The notes below the pieces were generated by a model, which was not told the DNA's origin, made no database searches, and saw only the letters and a program-made list of their open reading frames with translations. The position numbers were made by a program, and so were the translations under genes. 64,000 nucleotides of DNA from Candidatus Solibacter sp. Lineage in GTDB: Bacteria > Acidobacteriota > Terriglobia > Bryobacterales > Bryobacteraceae. Shown here piece by piece: positions 7,766 through 15,065 of the stretch. The first letter of the stretch is position 1, and every line of letters begins with the position of its first letter. The DNA lies in NCBI GenBank assembly GCA_013822245.1, contig PNKE01000055.1:597-64596 (forward strand). The letters are read 5' to 3'.

Positions 7766-8137
7766 CTATATGATCCCGATCAATTTCTCCTTGATCTGCT
7801 CCGCCGTGAACGGCTTCCTCACATACCCCACCGCCCCGAGATTCACCGCCTCCATCACCTTCGAACTGCCGCCCTCGGTGGTCACCATGATCACCGGCAC
7901 GTCCTTGATCCCGGCCGTCGCTTTGACGGCGCTCAAAAACTGCAGGCCGTCCATGTTCGGCATGTTGATGTCGGACAGTATCAGGCCGACCTTATTGGTC
8001 TTCAACGCCTCCAGCGCCTCCACCCCGTCGCCGGCTTCAACCACCCTGCCCAAAGGAACATCCGCCTGGACCAGAACCCGGTGCAGAATCTTCCGGATCG
8101 CCGCGGAGTCATCCACAATCAGCACATCGATCGCCAT
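7766..8137 (-). CDS. cheY: CheY-like single-domain response regulator
   Basis: 123 aa receiver: VLIVDDS, phospho-acceptor context LILSDINMPNMDG, VIMVTTEG, YVRKPF. GGAGG lies ~10 nt upstream of the ATG. Confidence 0.85.
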   Translation of the reverse strand: MAIDVLIVDDSAAIRKILHRVLVQADVPLGRVVEAGDGVEALEALKTNKVGLILSDINMPNMDGLQFLSAVKATAGIKDVPVIMVTTEGGSSKVMEAVNLGAVGYVRKPFTAEQIKEKLIGII

Positions 8138-8237: not shown

Positions 8238-9286
8238 CGCCGCGACAGCTCCCCGGCAACCTCCGCCGTCGCCGCCTCCCCGCCCAGATCCCGCGTCAAC
8301 CCCTCGCCCGACGCCAGCGCCTCCCTCACCGCCCTCTCCATCGCCGCCGCGATCTCGGCCTCCCCCAGATGCTCCATCATCATCGCCGCCGCCAGCACCG
8401 TCCCCATCGGGTTGGCCACCCCCTTGCCCGCGATATCCGGAGCCGACCCATGCACCGGCTCAAACAGCGACGGCGCTTTCCGCCCCGGATCCAGGTTCGC
8501 CGACGGCGCCAGCCCGATCGATCCCGTCACCATCGCCGACAGATCGCTCAGTATGTCGCCAAACAGGTTCGACGCCACCACCACGTCAAACGCCCCCGGC
8601 CGTCTCACGAAATCCATCGCCGCCGCATCCACCAGCAGGCTCGCCGTCCCCACATCGGGATACTCCCCCGCCACCTCCCTGAACACCCTGTCCCACAGCA
8701 CCAGCCCAAACCCCTGCGCATTCGACTTCGTAATCGACGTCACATGCCCGCGCCGCCGCCGCGCCAGCTCAAACGCGTACCGGATAATCCGCTCCACCCC
8801 CGCGCGCGTGAAGATCGACGTCTGCACCGCCACCTCGCCCGGCATGTGATGGTACAGAAACCCGCCCGCCTGCGCATACTCGCCCTCGGTGTTCTCCCGC
8901 ACCACCACCATATCGATCGACCCCGGGCCGTACCCAACCAGCGGGCACTTCACCCCCTCATAGAGATACGCCGGCCTCACGTTGGCATACAGGTCAAACC
9001 CGCGCCGGATCGGCAGCAGCAGCCCGTTCAGCGTAATATGGTCCGGGATGTCGGGGTGGCCCACCGCGCCCATCAGGATCGCATCGTGCTGGCGCAGCCG
9101 CTCCAGCGCATCCACCGGCATCATCACTCCATGGCGGAAGTAATACTCCGACCCCCATTCGTAGCTGGTAAACTCCAGCCCCACCCCGCGCCCCCCGCAC
9201 GCGCTCTCCAGCACCTGCCGCGCCGCTGGAACCACTTCCATCCCGATCCCGTCACCCGGCAACAGCGCAATCGAATACCTCTTCAT
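8228..9286 (-). CDS. Tartrate/D-malate dehydrogenase-like enzyme (isocitrate/isopropylmalate dehydrogenase family)
   Basis: LLPGDGIG, VRENTEGEY, TKSNA and NLFGDILSD motifs. Overall pattern is closest to the tartrate dehydrogenase subgroup, judged from memory. Confidence 0.8.
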   Translation of the reverse strand: MKRYSIALLPGDGIGMEVVPAARQVLESACGGRGVGLEFTSYEWGSEYYFRHGVMMPVDALERLRQHDAILMGAVGHPDIPDHITLNGLLLPIRRGFDLYANVRPAYLYEGVKCPLVGYGPGSIDMVVVRENTEGEYAQAGGFLYHHMPGEVAVQTSIFTRAGVERIIRYAFELARRRRGHVTSITKSNAQGFGLVLWDRVFREVAGEYPDVGTASLLVDAAAMDFVRRPGAFDVVVASNLFGDILSDLSAMVTGSIGLAPSANLDPGRKAPSLFEPVHGSAPDIAGKGVANPMGTVLAAAMMMEHLGEAEIAAAMERAVREALASGEGLTRDLGGEAATAEVAGELSRRAG

Positions 9287-9309: not shown

Positions 9310-10110
9310 ATGACTCCCGGCAACCCCTTCCCGCTCGACGGCAAAACCGCCCTGGTCGCCGGCGCCAGCCGCGGCATCGGGCTCGCCATCGCCGGCGCCC
9401 TCGCCCGCGCCGGAGCCCGCACCCTGCTCGCCGCCCGCTCGCTCGACGCGTTGCAGTCCGCCGCCGCCAATCTCCGCGCCCAGGGTTTCGCCGCCGAAGC
9501 CCACCCGCTCGACATCGCCTGCGCCCAGTCCCGCGCAGCTCTCGCCGCCACGGTTGCCTGCCCCGACATCCTGGTCAACGTCGCCGGCATCAACACCCGT
9601 AAACGCATGGAGGACTTCACCCCCGCCGAGTACCGCCGCGTCATGTCCACCAATCTCGACGGCGTCTTTGAACTCACCCAGCTCATCGCCCGCCGCATGA
9701 TCGCCCGCGTCCAGTCCGGCGAAGCCAGCGGCGGCAAGGTGATCCACATCGGCAGCCTCACGTCGTTCATCGGACTGCCTTACTCGTCGGTCTACACCAT
9801 GACCAAATCGGCCCTGGCCGGCCTCACCCGCTCAACCGCCTTCGAGTGGGCCAGGTACAACATCCAGGTGAACTGCATCGCCCCCGGCTTCATCCTCACT
9901 GACCTCAACCGCCAGATGTGGCAGGCGGAAGTGATGCTCGACTGGCTCAAAGGCGTCCAGGCCAACCCGCAAATGGGCACGCCCGAAGACGTCGCTCCGC
10001 TGGCCGTTTTCCTCGCCTCTGAAGGCGCCCGCTACATCACCGGCCAGGTCATCGCCGTCGACGGCGGCTTCATGGCGGGCGAGATGTGGCCCTTCGAACC
10101 GCCCGCCTGA
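9310..10110 (+). CDS. SDR family oxidoreductase
   Basis: TALVAGASRGIG cofactor motif, catalytic S...YxxxK (YTMTKSA), PGFILTD. Confidence 0.85.
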   Translation: MTPGNPFPLDGKTALVAGASRGIGLAIAGALARAGARTLLAARSLDALQSAAANLRAQGFAAEAHPLDIACAQSRAALAATVACPDILVNVAGINTRKRMEDFTPAEYRRVMSTNLDGVFELTQLIARRMIARVQSGEASGGKVIHIGSLTSFIGLPYSSVYTMTKSALAGLTRSTAFEWARYNIQVNCIAPGFILTDLNRQMWQAEVMLDWLKGVQANPQMGTPEDVAPLAVFLASEGARYITGQVIAVDGGFMAGEMWPFEPPA

Positions 10111-10146
10111 CCGCCTCTCGCCGAGAGGCCGTTCCGCACCCGGCGC

Positions 10147-10233
10147 CTACCGCCGGCCGCGCAGCGTCATCAACGCCAGCAACGCGATCAACGCCGCCGC
10201 CACCGCCGCCATCGTGATTGTCCAGGTGTCCAT
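10147..10233 (-). CDS. Candidate 28-aa hydrophobic small peptide (copy 1)
   Basis: My own translation of the minus strand gives MDTWTITMAAVAAALIALLALMTLRGRR*. GGAGGA lies 5 nt upstream of the ATG. It is a paralogue of the neighbouring 87-nt ORF. Confidence 0.4.
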   Translation of the reverse strand: MDTWTITMAAVAAALIALLALMTLRGRR

Positions 10234-10294
10234 TGGAATCCTCCGCGCCCCATCCAGGGCTCCATGCCGTCGCGGCCCATACGCTCTCGCCGCC

Positions 10295-10381
10295 CTATTG
10301 CCGCGCAAGCGTCAGGAACAAAGCGATCCCGGCGGCCACTATCGCCGCCACCAGCACCATCGCGCACCTTGTTCCATCCAC
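10295..10381 (-). CDS. Candidate 28-aa hydrophobic small peptide (copy 2, GTG start)
   Basis: The minus strand gives (M)DGTRCAMVLVAAIVAAGIALFLTLARQ*. GGAGGGAGG lies 5 nt upstream of the GTG. Same length and layout as copy 1. Confidence 0.4.
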   Translation of the reverse strand: MDGTRCAMVLVAAIVAAGIALFLTLARQ

Positions 10382-10489
10382 GCGAACCTCCCTCCGAAAC
10401 AGCTTGCTTCAACATCCGGCCGCCGGCGCGATCCAGTCCTGACCCGCCCAGCCCAACTCAGATACAATCTCCTGCGAGGTCCATTCCAG

Positions 10490-10764
10490 ATGCGCCTTCC
10501 GCCGCTCGCCTTGCTGTTGTCCGCAAACGCCTTCACCCAGCAATACGTTCGCGTCAGTCCCGGAGATCCCGGATATTTGGAACTCTCGTCCGGCAAGCCA
10601 TACAGCCCCATCGGACTGAACCTCATCGCCCCGCCGTCTCGGCCGATGCGTCCATGACGACCTACGAGCGCTGGCTCGACGCGCTCTCAGCCAGCCGCGG
10701 CAGCTACGTCCGCTTCTGGATGTCGAACCCTTTCCGGGATGGCGAACATGCTTGGCGTCCATGA
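10490..10764 (+). pseudogene. N-terminal remnant of an exported glycoside-hydrolase-like gene (frameshifted, truncated)
   Basis: Signal peptide MRLPPLALLLSANAFTQQ then YSPIGLNLI. The reading continues in another frame as TYERWLDALSASRGSYVRFWMSNPF and stops after ~90 codons. Confidence 0.4.
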
Positions 10765-11047
10765 CGAACAGCAGGCCCGCCGGCCCGTGCTGATCGTCTC
10801 GCCGGAGCCGTTCAACCGGATGGCGAAGGTCCCGGTTGTAGTGCCTATCCCCGGCGGCTGAAGCTTCGCCGGGACAGCCGGGTTCGCCGTGCCGTTGACC
10901 GGTGCCGGAACCGCAACCACGGGCGTGGTCCGCTGCGATCAACCGCGCGCACTCGGCCTCGCCGGGCGCGGCGGCAGGAGACCCGGCACCGTCCCCGCCG
11001 CCATCATGGATGAAGTGCTGGCGCGGCTGGCGGCGGTCTTCAAGTGA
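10748..11047 (+). pseudogene. MazF/PemK-family toxin pseudogene (N-terminally truncated, in-frame TGA at 10859-10861)
   Basis: The translation RPVLIVSPEPFNRMAKVPVVVPIPGG*SFAGTAGFAVPLTGAGTATTGVVRCDQPRALGL...DEVLARLAAVFK follows the MazF/PemK pattern. Confidence 0.65.
10931..11047 (+). repeat. Direct repeat copy 1 (mazF-like 3' end)
   Basis: Gapless alignment to 11918-12034. I count ~11 mismatches over 117 nt by hand. Confidence 0.85.
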
Positions 11048-11090
11048 GGACCAAGCGGGCGGGGCGGCGGGCCGAGCATCCCTTCAGAGC

Positions 11091-11133
11091 GCTGTACTCC
11101 TCGCTTGACAGGGCTGTACGCCTCGCGTAATAT
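11091..11133 (+). promoter_or_regulatory. Putative higBA promoter with a tandem 14-nt repeat (candidate operator)
   Basis: TTGACA (11105-11110), 17-nt spacer, TAATAT (11128-11133). GCTGTACTCCTCGC (11091-11104) and GCTGTACGCCTCGC (11113-11126) are 22 nt apart. The ATG at 11143 leaves almost no leader. Confidence 0.5.
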
Positions 11134-11142
11134 CACAAGTGG

Positions 11143-11418
11143 ATGATCCGTTCTTTCGGCGATAAGGAGACCCGGCGGCTCCATGATCGCGAGTTCAGCC
11201 GCCGGTTTCAGAGCGTGGAAAAGACGGCTCGAATCCGGCTGGCTTTGCTGGACGCGGCAACGGCGCTGAGCGACCTGAGTCTGCCTGGACTGCGCCTGGA
11301 GGCGCTCGCGGGCGACCGTTCAGGCCAGTACAGCATTCGGATCAATGACCGGTTCCGGATCTGTTTCCGCTGGTGCGGCGGAGATGCCCTCGATGTCGAA
11401 ATCGTGGACTACCACTAG
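11143..11418 (+). CDS. higB: HigB-like toxin (RelE/ParE superfamily, plasmid maintenance system killer family)
   Basis: 91 aa. MIRSFGDKETRRL ... GDRSGQYSIRINDRFRICFRW ... VEIVDYH is the classic HigB pattern, and the toxin lies upstream of the antitoxin. Confidence 0.85.
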   Translation: MIRSFGDKETRRLHDREFSRRFQSVEKTARIRLALLDAATALSDLSLPGLRLEALAGDRSGQYSIRINDRFRICFRWCGGDALDVEIVDYH

Positions 11419-11454
11419 TCCGGAGGCGCTTGGGCTGCGATTGATGAGTGGGAG

Positions 11455-11769
11455 ATGCTGATGGCCAAGAAGAAGACAATAAAACTGGCGCCGGTTCACC
11501 CCGGCGATGTTCTGGCGGACCTGCTCGACGAGTGCGGACTGACGGCGAATGCGCTGGCCATGGCCTTGCGCGTTCCGGCCAACCGCATCGGCGGCATCAT
11601 CAAAGGCCAGAGGGGCATCACCGGAGACACGGCCTTGCGCCTCGGACGCTACTTCGGAACATCGGCTGCGATGTGGATGAACCTGCAGGCCAAGCACGAT
11701 CTGGCGGTGGCCGAGGACGAACTCCGCGCACGCATCGACCGTGAAGTCCTGCCCCGAGCCGCCGCCTGA
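11455..11769 (+). CDS. higA: HigA-family antitoxin (XRE-type HTH)
   Basis: PVHPGDVLADLLDECGLTANALAMALRVPANRIGGIIKGQRGITGDTALRLGRYFGTSAAMWMNLQ is the canonical HigA HTH. Confidence 0.85.
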   Translation: MLMAKKKTIKLAPVHPGDVLADLLDECGLTANALAMALRVPANRIGGIIKGQRGITGDTALRLGRYFGTSAAMWMNLQAKHDLAVAEDELRARIDREVLPRAAA

Positions 11770-11917
11770 GACGCCACGGCCACTCCAGCGCGCCGCGAAC
11801 TCCGAACCGGGCCGACCGGCAATCAACCGTGATTCGGTCCTGGACCATAGAGGTTCCCGGCTTTCGTCCGCAAACCGTGCGTGCTCCGAACCCGGCTCAC
11901 ACGGCAGACGGCCTCCC

Positions 11918-12034
11918 CGCTGCGATCAACCGCGCGCACTTGACCTGGCCGGGCGCGGCGGCAAGAGACTCAGAACCGCCCCCGCCGCCATCTTGGATGA
12001 AGTGCAGGCGCGGCTGGCGGCGGTCTTCGAGTGA
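11918..12034 (+). pseudogene. Second copy of the mazF-like 3' end (C-terminal ~38 codons only); direct repeat copy 2
   Basis: Translates CDQPRALDLAGRGGKRLRTAPAAILDEVQARLAAVFE*. The upstream sequence has no MazF similarity. Confidence 0.7.
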
Positions 12035-12192
12035 GCAAAAAGCAACTCCAGATCCGCACCCGCGACCGCACTGCGCCGCTCGGTGGACCGACACACGGCA
12101 TGAGCCGGCAAAGTGACAAACCCATTGACTCACTCCTGGCATTGTGTTAGCTCTATTCGCGCTGAGGCAAATTAGTATAAAGGAGTGACGAT

Positions 12193-12639
12193 ATGGCGAC
12201 CGATTCGGGGATCTCCCCAATGGGAGTGCCGCAGTGCGAGTGGTGTGCTTCAACTAACTTGGTCCGCGAGGTGCGACAACGAGAGACGGCGCTCTGCGCA
12301 TCCTGTCGTAACATTGTGAGGCAGCAACAACACTCTGCCAAAGCCGGTGATCGATACAAATGTGCTGTCTATCGCGAATGTGAGCGTCTGGCAAAATCCG
12401 TCGGAAGCAAATATCGCCTAAGGATGGACGAGCCGAGCGGCCTTGAACTGGAGTACACTCTTTGCGAGATAGCGAGACTGGCCTGTGGAGATGAGTGTTA
12501 TCGGAACTCGGCTTCGTGTTTCAACCAAGAGTTCACGGGGCAACAGCGAAAAGCCATAATCGACCTACTCTTCCAGATTATCTGGAGAGCAGAGACACGC
12601 CGACGATTCCGCAAGGCAGCTTACTCTCCAAACCTCTGA
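12193..12639 (+). CDS. Hypothetical protein with N-terminal CxxC...CxxC zinc-ribbon (AT-richer island)
   Basis: 148 aa. AAGGAG lies ~7 nt upstream of the ATG. CEWC-x17-CASC. I recognise no family. Composition is clearly AT-richer than the flanks. Confidence 0.55.
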   Translation: MATDSGISPMGVPQCEWCASTNLVREVRQRETALCASCRNIVRQQQHSAKAGDRYKCAVYRECERLAKSVGSKYRLRMDEPSGLELEYTLCEIARLACGDECYRNSASCFNQEFTGQQRKAIIDLLFQIIWRAETRRRFRKAAYSPNL

Positions 12640-12702
12640 CAAATGCACTGGGTCGGAATCGTCAATCTTGTTCGTGCCCGCCATAGACGACAAACGATTC
12701 AG

Positions 12703-13194
12703 TCACTCGGACTGATTCCTTGATTGTTCCTTGCGTCTCTGGCTCCTCTTAGCCTCTAGGAACGAGAGCACTTCTTCGTTGGCAATTTCTGCCTCAATGC
12801 TGGATGAGATGAGACTGATCGGACTGATCTTAACGGCACTTATTCCCATAATAATCCAATTAATAATGGCAAACAAAATCCCCCACCAAAATTCAATAAA
12901 TCCACCCACCGCTGCAAGAGCAAGCCCTGCAATCTGGCTAGTAGCAGCTGCAGCGCTCAGGTCGCGAGAGGCAAGTGGCAACGCAAAATAATGACTATAC
13001 TTCTGGAGCATACAATTTGCAGCTGGCGAGAGTACAAGAATCTCATTGAAGCGGTATCTTTTTTTCGCATAGACGAATTGCAGGATGAGAAAACAATTAA
13101 GTGCACCACATATTATCCACCCTGTCCACGGATCGGAAACAAATGTCAGGATGGCAGCACCAAGCAGTACAATAATTGAAAGCATCTGAAACAT
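12703..13194 (-). CDS. Hypothetical 4-TM membrane protein (AT-richer island)
   Basis: 163 aa with four hydrophobic segments and a charged C-terminal tail KRSQRRKEQSRNQSE. It is the most AT-rich stretch in the window. I recognise no family. Confidence 0.6.
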   Translation of the reverse strand: MFQMLSIIVLLGAAILTFVSDPWTGWIICGALNCFLILQFVYAKKRYRFNEILVLSPAANCMLQKYSHYFALPLASRDLSAAAATSQIAGLALAAVGGFIEFWWGILFAIINWIIMGISAVKISPISLISSSIEAEIANEEVLSFLEAKRSQRRKEQSRNQSE

Positions 13195-13288
13195 GAGTCC
13201 GCCCCAATCGACCAGTGTTGTAGCCAGCTAAGGGCAAAAGGGCAAAATTCACCATTCCCTATGCCTCTGTAGCTGCCTGCAATGCAAT

Positions 13289-13316
13289 AGTATACACGCA
13301 AAAGGAATCTAGTCAA
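13289..13316 (-). promoter_or_regulatory. Putative sigma70-type promoter for the 4-TM gene
   Basis: Minus strand: TTGACT (13316-13311), 16-nt spacer, TATACT (13294-13289). Confidence 0.4.
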
Positions 13317-13742
13317 CATGATTTTCAGAGATATCCTGAGTCATAGACCGACAACACGCCTTGGCGCGACCGACTGTACTGAATTGCCTGTCGATCCACT
13401 TGAGCACATAGTTGGCCGTCCGGACCGCCAGAAGCCAGTTGGCGACGACATTCTTTCGCCAGCCCACCGTCACACAGCGAAGTCCCCGATCACCCCCAGC
13501 GCCACTTTACCCACCTGGTCGTCCACAGCGCAGAAGAGTTCGACGGACGGGATCTCCTTGGCGGCCGGTTTGCCCCAGGCGCGAGCGCAGGGGAGCGGCC
13601 GTCGGGGTAAAGCATGGAGGTTCCCGCCAACCCGTCACTCAAGTTAGCTGCGCTCGCATATCGTTTTGGGCTGGACGACATGCCTTGACGGCTACGGAGT
13701 TGGGTTGGCCAACGGCCGGGAGGGCCGGCGGGTCGAGTCCGG

Positions 13743-15065
13743 TTACACCGTCTTCGGATCCGGGTGGGCCCAGGGTTTGCGGTAGGGGCGGGCGAGGAGT
13801 TTGTTGGCGGCGGGGTCGCCTTTGACCAGGCCGGCGGCGGCGTCCCAGGTGAGCGACCGGCCGAGTTCCATCGACAGGTTCGACAGGATGCAGCTCGCCG
13901 CCGAGATGTGGCCTTCCTCGATGTCGGCCACGGGGCGGCCTCCGCTGGCGATGCAGTTCAGGAAATCCTGCATCTGGCGGCGGATGGCCGGGGCGCAGTG
14001 TTTCTCCAGGCGCGGCTCGGTTTTGTCCTCGGGGTACTGTTCGAGCTCGTATTCCACGTCCTTGTGGACGGGCGCGGCGCCCTTTTCGCGGGGGATGAAA
14101 TCGTAGCCCCAGACGCTGGCCTTGAGCGTTCCCTTTTCGCCGTAGAAGATGGCCGCCCAGGGGTATTTCTCGTCCGGCGACGCCCCGTAGTGGCGGTGCT
14201 GCCAGGTCATTTTCACGTCGCCGAAGTCGAGCGTCGAGATCTGGGTGTCGGCGATATTCTGTTTGGCGTTTTTATGGACCAGGACGCCGCCCGAGGCCGA
14301 AATGGACTTGGGCCAGCCGAGGTCCATCATCCAGCGGGCCATGTCGATCATGTGGACGCCCATGTCGCCGATGGTGCCGTTGCCGTATTCGTTGAAGGCG
14401 CGCCAGGAGCCGGGATGGGTCATGCGGTTGAAGGGGCGCATGGGGGCGGGGCCGGTCCACATTTCGTAGTCGAGGTAGTCGGGCGGGGCGGTGTCGGGCG
14501 GGTTGGGGGGATTGTTGCGTGGGTAGAAGCAGCAGGTTTCGACGACGCCGACCTTGCCGAGTTTGCCGTCGCGGATGAGGTTGCGGGCTTCGATCAAGTG
14601 GGGCGTGGAGCGGCGCTGCATGCCCACCTGGACCACCTTCTTATACTTGCGGGCGGCGGCGAGCATGGCCTGGCCCTCGACGACATCCACCGAGATGGGC
14701 TTCTGGACCCAGACGTGGGCGCCCGCCTTGATGGCCTCGATGGTGGGCAGCGCGTGCCAGTGGTCGGGGGTGCCGACGATGGCGATGTCGATGTCGCGTT
14801 CGGCGAGCAGTTTGCGATAGTCGCCGTAGGTGCGCGGGCGTTTCTTTGATTTCTGGCGCTCGGCGATGCGGTCGGCGGCGTCGGCGAGCATGTTCCTGTC
14901 GACGTCGCAGACCGAGACGACCTCGACGGGGGAGACCTGGATGAGACGGAACAGGTCGCATTTGCCGTACCAGCCGGCGCCGATGAGGGCGACGCGTTTG
15001 GGTGTGTCGTCAAGGTAGGCAAGCGAGGCGGCGGATGAGGCGAGGAACTCCCGGCGGTTGATCAT
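13743..15065 (-). CDS. Gfo/Idh/MocA family oxidoreductase with twin-arginine signal
   Basis: MINRREFLASSAASLA Tat-type N-terminus. Rossmann VALIGAGWYGK. EKP-like motif VWVQKPIS. Confidence 0.85.
   Translation of the reverse strand: MINRREFLASSAASLAYLDDTPKRVALIGAGWYGKCDLFRLIQVSPVEVVSVCDVDRNMLADAADRIAERQKSKKRPRTYGDYRKLLAERDIDIAIVGTPDHWHALPTIEAIKAGAHVWVQKPISVDVVEGQAMLAAARKYKKVVQVGMQRRSTPHLIEARNLIRDGKLGKVGVVETCCFYPRNNPPNPPDTAPPDYLDYEMWTGPAPMRPFNRMTHPGSWRAFNEYGNGTIGDMGVHMIDMARWMMDLGWPKSISASGGVLVHKNAKQNIADTQISTLDFGDVKMTWQHRHYGASPDEKYPWAAIFYGEKGTLKASVWGYDFIPREKGAAPVHKDVEYELEQYPEDKTEPRLEKHCAPAIRRQMQDFLNCIASGGRPVADIEEGHISAASCILSNLSMELGRSLTWDAAAGLVKGDPAANKLLARPYRKPWAHPDPKTV

Follow-up and report, generated by a model that had tools for sequence, protein, structure and literature searches.

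A variable low-GC slot in a toxin–antitoxin island of an acidobacterial genome, and a small mobile family of zinc-ribbon proteins

Introduction

Hotspots for toxin–antitoxin (TA) and defence genes usually exchange their cargo by homologous recombination in the flanks. The cargo of integron cassettes is typically small, AT-richer and without assigned function, and is interspersed with TA modules. Here we analyse a slot of low G+C content (GC) in a 64 000-nucleotide stretch of Candidatus Solibacter sp. (Acidobacteriota; contig PNKE01000055.1, positions 597–64 596, assembly GCA_013822245.1), to which we refer as the window. The slot contains two convergent open reading frames (ORFs), one for a protein of 148 amino acids (aa) with a zinc ribbon (Zn148) and one for a predicted membrane protein of 163 aa with four transmembrane (TM) segments (TM163). 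An earlier note, made from the sequence alone, had described them as two horizontally acquired orphan genes reminiscent of abortive-infection (Abi) or defence pairs. In our analysis the locus is probably a recombination hotspot within a TA island, occupied by accessory DNA: a mosaic of two independent cargo modules. As such the islet is ordinary; the by-product of its analysis is a small, mobile and uncharacterised family of zinc-ribbon proteins (the Zn family).

The locus resembles known TA/defence-island hotspots in its conserved flanks (higBA–mazF' on one side, hipA on the other) and in a content that differs in three related genomes. The cargo is of low GC, TA genes and an Mrr-type nuclease are found in or beside the slot, and there is no dedicated recombinase. 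Unlike those hotspots, the slot is very small (0.7–3.2 kb) and is bordered by pseudogenised toxin genes, and no cargo gene of the window genome matches a known defence family. Sedentary chromosomal integrons come into consideration because one Zn family member, from a genome of the same phylum (G419), is a 609-bp cassette between canonical attC sites; the window, in contrast, has no attC, no IntI and no co-oriented array, and its genes are convergent with promoters of their own. The Zn family shares with uS14/eL43-type zinc ribbons four invariant Cys, a spacing of 16–17 residues and a basic stretch thereafter. It differs in that none of the matches reaches significance or extends beyond about 30 residues, and in a conserved C-terminal helical domain without known relative. 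Small upstream antitoxin or regulator partners are a further likeness, as in four loci (L143, L026, L027 and G518) an unrelated downstream gene overlaps with the Zn gene or adjoins it; the gene for Zn148, however, has no co-directional partner, and a role in neutralisation is putative. The locus offers a single-locus view of cargo turnover in a TA island of a poorly studied soil phylum.

Cargo of the slot in three related genomes

We compared the window genome with a metagenome contig from JGI that stems from a relative (L056) and with a genome of the same genus (G006). The slot, its borders and its content are as follows.

12038–13495, no strand: variable low-GC slot of about 1.45 kb, defined by alignment break-points against G006 and L056 and by the GC profile
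11917–12043, plus strand: 3' remnant of mazF, copy 2, with its stop codon at 12032–12034; left border of the slot (repeat search and Pfam)
13470–13742, minus strand: remnant of hipA; right border of the slot (alignment to the HipA_C gene of L056 and to G006)
12114–12192, plus strand: upstream region of the Zn gene, with TTGACT at 12125–12130 and the Shine–Dalgarno sequence AAGGAG at 12180–12185; 76% conserved with L056
12193–12639, plus strand: Zn148, 148 aa, N-terminal zinc ribbon and helical C-terminal domain (ORF; HMMER family)
12703–13194, minus strand: TM163, 163 aa, predicted 4-TM membrane protein (ORF; hydropathy; helices of the AlphaFold2 [AF2] model)
13316 to 13289, minus strand: TTGACT-16-TATACT, resembling a sigma-70-type promoter (10 of 12 consensus matches) and located some 95 nt ahead of the TM163 start

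Two decayed toxin genes that converge on the slot delimit it with their stop codons, at 12034 (mazF') and 13470 (hipA'), and each of the three genomes fills it differently. The window haplotype consists of Zn148 and TM163. The gene order in G006 is that for a Gfo/Idh/MocA oxidoreductase (Gfo), hipA' with the same deletion as in the window, a gene for a secreted protein of 201 aa, mazF', higA, higB and an intact mazEF. Its Gfo protein is 96–97% identical to that of the window, and homology of the two genomes stops just past the mazF' stop codon (about 12037) to resume at about 13492. The order in L056 is higBA, mazF', a Zn allele (Zn150), a 183-aa gene, an Mrr_cat nuclease gene, a 148-aa gene and hipA. 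The C-terminal half of this hipA (HipA_C) is intact, and the contig ends within the gene. The nuclease is a membrane-anchored Mrr-type protein which matches the PADLOC profiles PDC-S02 and ZorD nuclease.

Nucleotide identity between L056 and the window is about 95% in higBA, as counted in the three-way alignment, and 89% in mazF'. At the end of mazF' copy 2 it falls from 89% to about 61%. Homology then continues through the spacer and promoter region into the Zn gene (12114–12666, about 75% identity) and ends 27 nt past the Zn stop codon. Compared with L056 and G006, only the population of the window has the TM163 gene and the 300 bp upstream of it. The identical insert was found in a second assembly from a different sample (L055), and a DNA search of 40 relatives gave no match to the segment. 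Among relatives that retain the flanks, G006 thus carries a different gene and L056 the Zn module only. In more distant members of the genus, synteny with the window does not extend past the Gfo gene, so that the ancestral state of the slot cannot be polarised.

We looked for traces of a mobile element as the vehicle of the insert. A search for terminal repeats around it, direct or inverted, gave nothing convincing (only short matches at chance level), the ORF list of the slot contains neither an integrase nor an insertion sequence (IS), and the slot yielded no RNA family match and no tRNA.

Composition and coding signals of the low-GC segment

GC was profiled in 300-nt windows across the stretch and compared genome-wide in 1-kb windows. 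The 300-nt values are 0.44–0.53 over 12100–13400 and 0.62–0.72 on either flank, with a trough of 0.44–0.47 at 12600–13300, above the minus-strand ORF. The drop at about 12100–13330 and its minimum at 12703–13194, which had been estimated by eye, are therefore confirmed by the sliding windows. The assembly (4.47 Mb in 86 contigs, 98.5% complete) has a GC of 0.644 with a standard deviation of 0.026 among 1-kb windows. The interval 12200–13199 has a GC of 0.495, and only 0.057% of the 1-kb windows of the genome are equal or lower; the segment is one of seven islands in the genome with a GC below 0.52. The GC at third codon positions is 0.57 for Zn148 and 0.45 for TM163, compared with 0.75–0.89 for the adjoining genes. 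This deviant composition (0.49 versus 0.644) and the absence of the segment from G006, which retains the flanks, support a horizontal or accessory origin as previously proposed; the reported location next to TA modules is likewise supported. Two other strongly low-GC islands of the same genome (C30:1751-4750 and C55:23751-25750, GC 0.46–0.48) contain hypothetical ORFs without similarity to Zn148 or TM163.

Both convergent ORFs and both expression signals of the earlier note are present. AAGGAG is positioned 7 nt ahead of the ATG of Zn148. A scan for sigma-70-type sites found four, with 1.0 expected in shuffles; the Shine–Dalgarno sequence of TM163 is weak (GGGGCGG). These E. coli-like signals had been taken as evidence of foreignness. 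As the promoter of the resident higBA genes is likewise consensus-like (TTGACA-17-TAATAT), such signals are not diagnostic of foreign DNA.

TM163 has four hydrophobic segments of TM length and an amphipathic, charged C-terminal helix, as judged from hydropathy and the AF2 helices, in agreement with the original description of a four-TM protein with a charged tail. Its AF2 model is all-helical, is of low confidence and has no Foldseek match. Pfam gave sub-threshold signals only, for TauE (E 0.014) and DUF4231 (E 0.22), both far under the gathering scores, and the protein could not be assigned to the SLATT/DUF4231-type membrane effectors. Its stop codon is 63 nt from that of Zn148, with no clear terminator between the two genes.

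A zinc-ribbon family with changing neighbours

The cysteines of Zn148 are C15, C18, C35 and C38, corresponding to CxxC-x16-CxxC; the spacing given before, x17, has to be corrected by one residue. All four are invariant in the family alignment, where they form the pattern CxWC ... LCxxC. These two conserved CxxC knuckles indicate a zinc-ribbon fold, for which metal binding is predicted. The C-terminal part contains a second conserved block, GLxLE..l..vA......lY..As.F...F...QRR.LI.LL..I.R. The best profile signals in PDB are sub-threshold matches to the ribosomal ribbons uS14 and eL43 (E 0.006–0.1).

Zn148 and Zn150 are 68% identical, and the dN/dS of 0.30 clearly indicates that the gene for Zn148 is genuine and evolves under purifying selection. 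The dS of the Zn alleles is 0.73, compared with 0.10–0.17 in the adjacent higB and higA of the same two sequences. Either the Zn alleles far exceed their flanks in age or they ameliorate fast at synonymous sites. Zn150 (2418–2870 of L056) had been truncated to 73 aa by the automatic caller, although the full ORF is intact. Gene callers tuned to high-GC DNA evidently mis-call or truncate genes in low-GC islets, as also seen for TM163.

An exhaustive HMMER search of 1.84 billion representative proteins identified 14 homologues of Zn148 (E 1e-30 to 9e-4). A word-indexed search of 5.8 billion proteins returned Zn148 itself only, and a profile search of the protein index added few members. The designation as orphan therefore stands for TM163, for which no homologue was found in the 5.8-billion-protein index, in phage and plasmid collections or in 401 genomes of the phylum, but not for Zn148, which belongs to a small conserved family. 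Neither protein had a match by tblastn in the phage and plasmid collections or a paralogue in its own genome, and searches of genome contigs and IMG/VR with the family alignment revealed no Zn relative. In samples of 401 genomes each, two genomes from across the phylum and four from across the order contain the family, and some copies are truncated or adjacent to IS elements.

The genomic contexts of the 14 homologues, most of which lie on short contigs, differ from that of the window, and in none of those inspected does a neighbouring gene resemble TM163. Zn genes adjoin tyrosine recombinases (L025, L026), a TacAT module (L028, L029), an HsdM fragment (L024) and Mrr_cat nucleases (L056, L057 and L143, with an IS21 element also close to the L057 copy). 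The copy in L141 is located by a HicB antitoxin, beside a ribosomal operon, and that of G518, in a low-GC islet of 1.6 kb, follows an acetoin dehydrogenase operon. In L026 (127–1448), L143 (7030–8285) and G518 (L148, 7983–8887) the Zn gene overlaps the start of a co-directional downstream gene, and in L027 the gap is 3–12 nt. The partner in L026 is a proteasome-like Ntn hydrolase and that in L143 a DUF2971 protein; in L027 and G518 the partners are unknown proteins, of at least 491 aa and of 122 aa, respectively. The four are unrelated to one another. This suggests that Zn genes are translationally coupled to variable partners in four of about 14 contexts. DUF2971 proteins, which have an ART-like fold, are known as the antiphage system ‘Aristaios’ of lactococcal plasmids; unlike the arrangement in L143, that is described as a single-gene system (PMC11381338). 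In L030, an ORF of 166–185 aa convergent to the Zn gene contains five tandem 42-nt (14-codon) repeats of the ILE..VKILE type (2194–2487).

The family member in G419 (Zn167; L034, 8141–8644) is the single gene of its cassette. It is flanked by attC sites at 8029–8131 and 8638–8740, within an array of at least 26 sites (L034, G419:C4:1468000-1485000). The sites are near-identical, about 97 nt long, have GCCTAAC...GTTAGGC boxes and are spaced 363–900 bp apart. The array is AT-rich compared with its flanks, with a GC of 42–55% inside a genome of 68%. The IntI of G419 scores 461 bits (cut-off 265), and its gene is on a different contig from the array. The cassette that follows the Zn cassette codes for a 127-aa 2-TM protein with a C-terminal zinc ribbon of its own, which is unrelated to TM163.

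Origin of the slot and competing explanations

In the account that we consider probable, cargo would be swapped in the slot between the convergent 3' ends of mazF' and hipA', with homologous recombination within the conserved flanks as the most likely route. We infer this route because no integrase, IS, tRNA, att-like repeat or attC was detected. Module 1 (12114–12666) would be a self-promoted single zinc-ribbon gene from a rare, patchy, mobile family. Module 2 (12667–13495) would contribute an ORFan 4-TM gene with its own consensus promoter, convergent to the first and acquired separately. Since TM163 has no homologue and is absent beside the Zn allele of L056, Zn148 and TM163 appear to be independent cargo rather than a conserved pair. 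As to function, we tentatively regard Zn148 as a small nucleic-acid- or protein-binding regulator, or an antitoxin-like partner, in systems of inter-genome conflict, because Zn genes are coupled upstream of unrelated partners in the four contexts described above.

Several observations weigh against parts of this account. Neither for the Zn family nor for TM163 did Pfam, NCBIfam, PHROG, PADLOC or PDB give a significant match. The single-sequence AF2 models of the two proteins are poor (pLDDT, the predicted local distance difference test, of 50 and 65), and nothing usable emerged from Foldseek against PDB. About half of the Zn contexts are solo, including the copy in the window, and the idea of a partner of effectors goes back to four cases. 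Part of the high dS of the Zn alleles could come from the amelioration of AT-rich DNA and not from a separate origin. For TM163, the gene callers used in two assemblies gave shorter products of 102 aa and 57 aa, and its presumed coding status is derived from ORF length, TM pattern and promoter, without a comparator.

The last point leads to the question whether TM163 is a gene at all or whether the right half of the segment is non-coding foreign DNA with a long ORF by chance. The lack of homologues in billions of proteins and in the phylum genomes, the truncated gene calls and the weak Shine–Dalgarno sequence would all fit the latter, and 2.9% of shuffles contain an ORF of at least 148 aa. Two non-overlapping ORFs of this length filling the segment, however, occur in only 0.05% of segment shuffles. 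Further, chance would have had to produce four TM-length hydrophobic segments with an amphipathic charged tail, a rightly placed promoter with 10 of 12 consensus positions, and an ORF that is intact in L055 as well as in the window. On ORF length, TM architecture, promoter and conservation in two assemblies, TM163 is very probably a gene, and a chance ORF is unlikely. Zn148 and TM163 may also be imagined as a single unit, an Abi/defence or TA-like pair with TM163 as the effector and Zn148 as its sensor or neutraliser. The slot is a TA/defence hotspot, to which the L056 haplotype adds an Mrr-type nuclease. Zn genes are in some cases coupled to downstream genes that are unrelated, two of which have recognisable enzyme domains, and the low-GC islet of G518 likewise contains a Zn gene followed by a convergent gene. 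The short distance between the two stop codons would even permit overlapping transcripts. Yet the pair occurs nowhere else, an outcome that the earlier note itself had named as a refutation: TM163 is missing from every other Zn context, including the allelic one in L056, and has no homologue. PADLOC has no family for Zn148, TM163, Zn150 or Zn167, and a convergent layout is atypical of TA or defence operons. We regard such a pair, and with it the defence or Abi pair suggested by the earlier note, as very improbable.

An origin from integron cassettes also has to be weighed. The segment could be a decayed, CALIN-like relic, captured by recombination of attC with a secondary site, the attC having been eroded later. 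The cassette in the large attC array of G419 shows that a family member can occur in this form, and the segment is cassette-like in that it is small, low in GC, adjacent to TA genes and composed of genes that are rare or ORFans. Against this, a scan for attC boxes found no RYYYAAC...GTTRRRY pair at 40–160 nt spacing in 10000–14000, and a covariance model of attC, which is specific for the G419 type and of limited sensitivity, had no match near the segment or in L056. No IntI is encoded in the window genome, the best TIGR02249 score being 77.5 bits with a cut-off of 265, and convergent genes with their own promoters are unlike the typical promoterless cassettes. On these three findings (boxes, covariance model and IntI) the segment was rejected as a member of an integron, and we consider a relic to be decidedly improbable. 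In a broader proposal, the Zn family would be a new modular, mobile zinc-ribbon component of conflict systems (antitoxin, regulator or sensor) that can move in the form of integron cassettes. Its interchangeable effectors would be the ART-like DUF2971 protein, the proteasome-like hydrolase and perhaps, by way of convergent transcription, TM163. In that case the window would contain an undescribed two-gene Abi or addiction module. This appears improbable to us, if slightly less so than the relic. Zn148, at first an apparent ORFan, now belongs to a small mobile family that offers a concrete and cheap target for assays of toxicity, neutralisation and phage defence.

Flanking genes of the TA island

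The left flank of the slot contains an intact higBA pair between two mazF fragments. In addition to mazF copy 2, listed above, these features were identified.

10930–11056, plus strand: 3' fragment of mazF, copy 1 (repeat search, 89% identity; PemK_toxin E 3e-5; alignment to the intact mazEF of G006)
11143–11418, plus strand: higB, intact TA gene (Pfam HigB-like_toxin, 1e-12)
11455–11769, plus strand: higA, intact TA gene (Pfam HTH_3, 1.6e-6)

Copy 1 forms the end of a mazF pseudogene which lacks its 5' part and carries an in-frame stop codon. Copies 1 and 2 are the two units of a 127-nt direct repeat, each of them a mazF/PemK 3' end, and they flank higBA. The higBA genes themselves align with those of L056 and G006 at 98% mean column identity. 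Since the mazF'–higBA–mazF' layout is also present in G006 and L056, it predates the exchange of cargo.

On the right, the approximately 250 bp that separate the insert from the Gfo gene are not intergenic: they are the hipA pseudogene. It consists of the C-terminal end and a piece of the kinase core, fused by the internal deletion common to G006, with the recognisable residues ...LYPDGR.PALAP... and ...AWGK.AAKE..VE.FCAVDDQV....

Further upstream, at 10150–10765, mazE and the 5' part of mazF have been lost relative to G006, and unrelated sequence abuts a gene of the SDR type. This sequence includes fragments resembling a disrupted gene for a secreted protein or glycosidase. The region is a second rearrangement break-point within the same island. 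On the other side of the slot, contigs of three metagenome-assembled genomes of the genus break inside the orthologous Gfo/Idh/MocA gene, at residues ~181–247 (G003:C37, G005:C77 and G006:C220/C243), which suggests that assembly is disturbed there by a sequence that is repeated or has paralogues.

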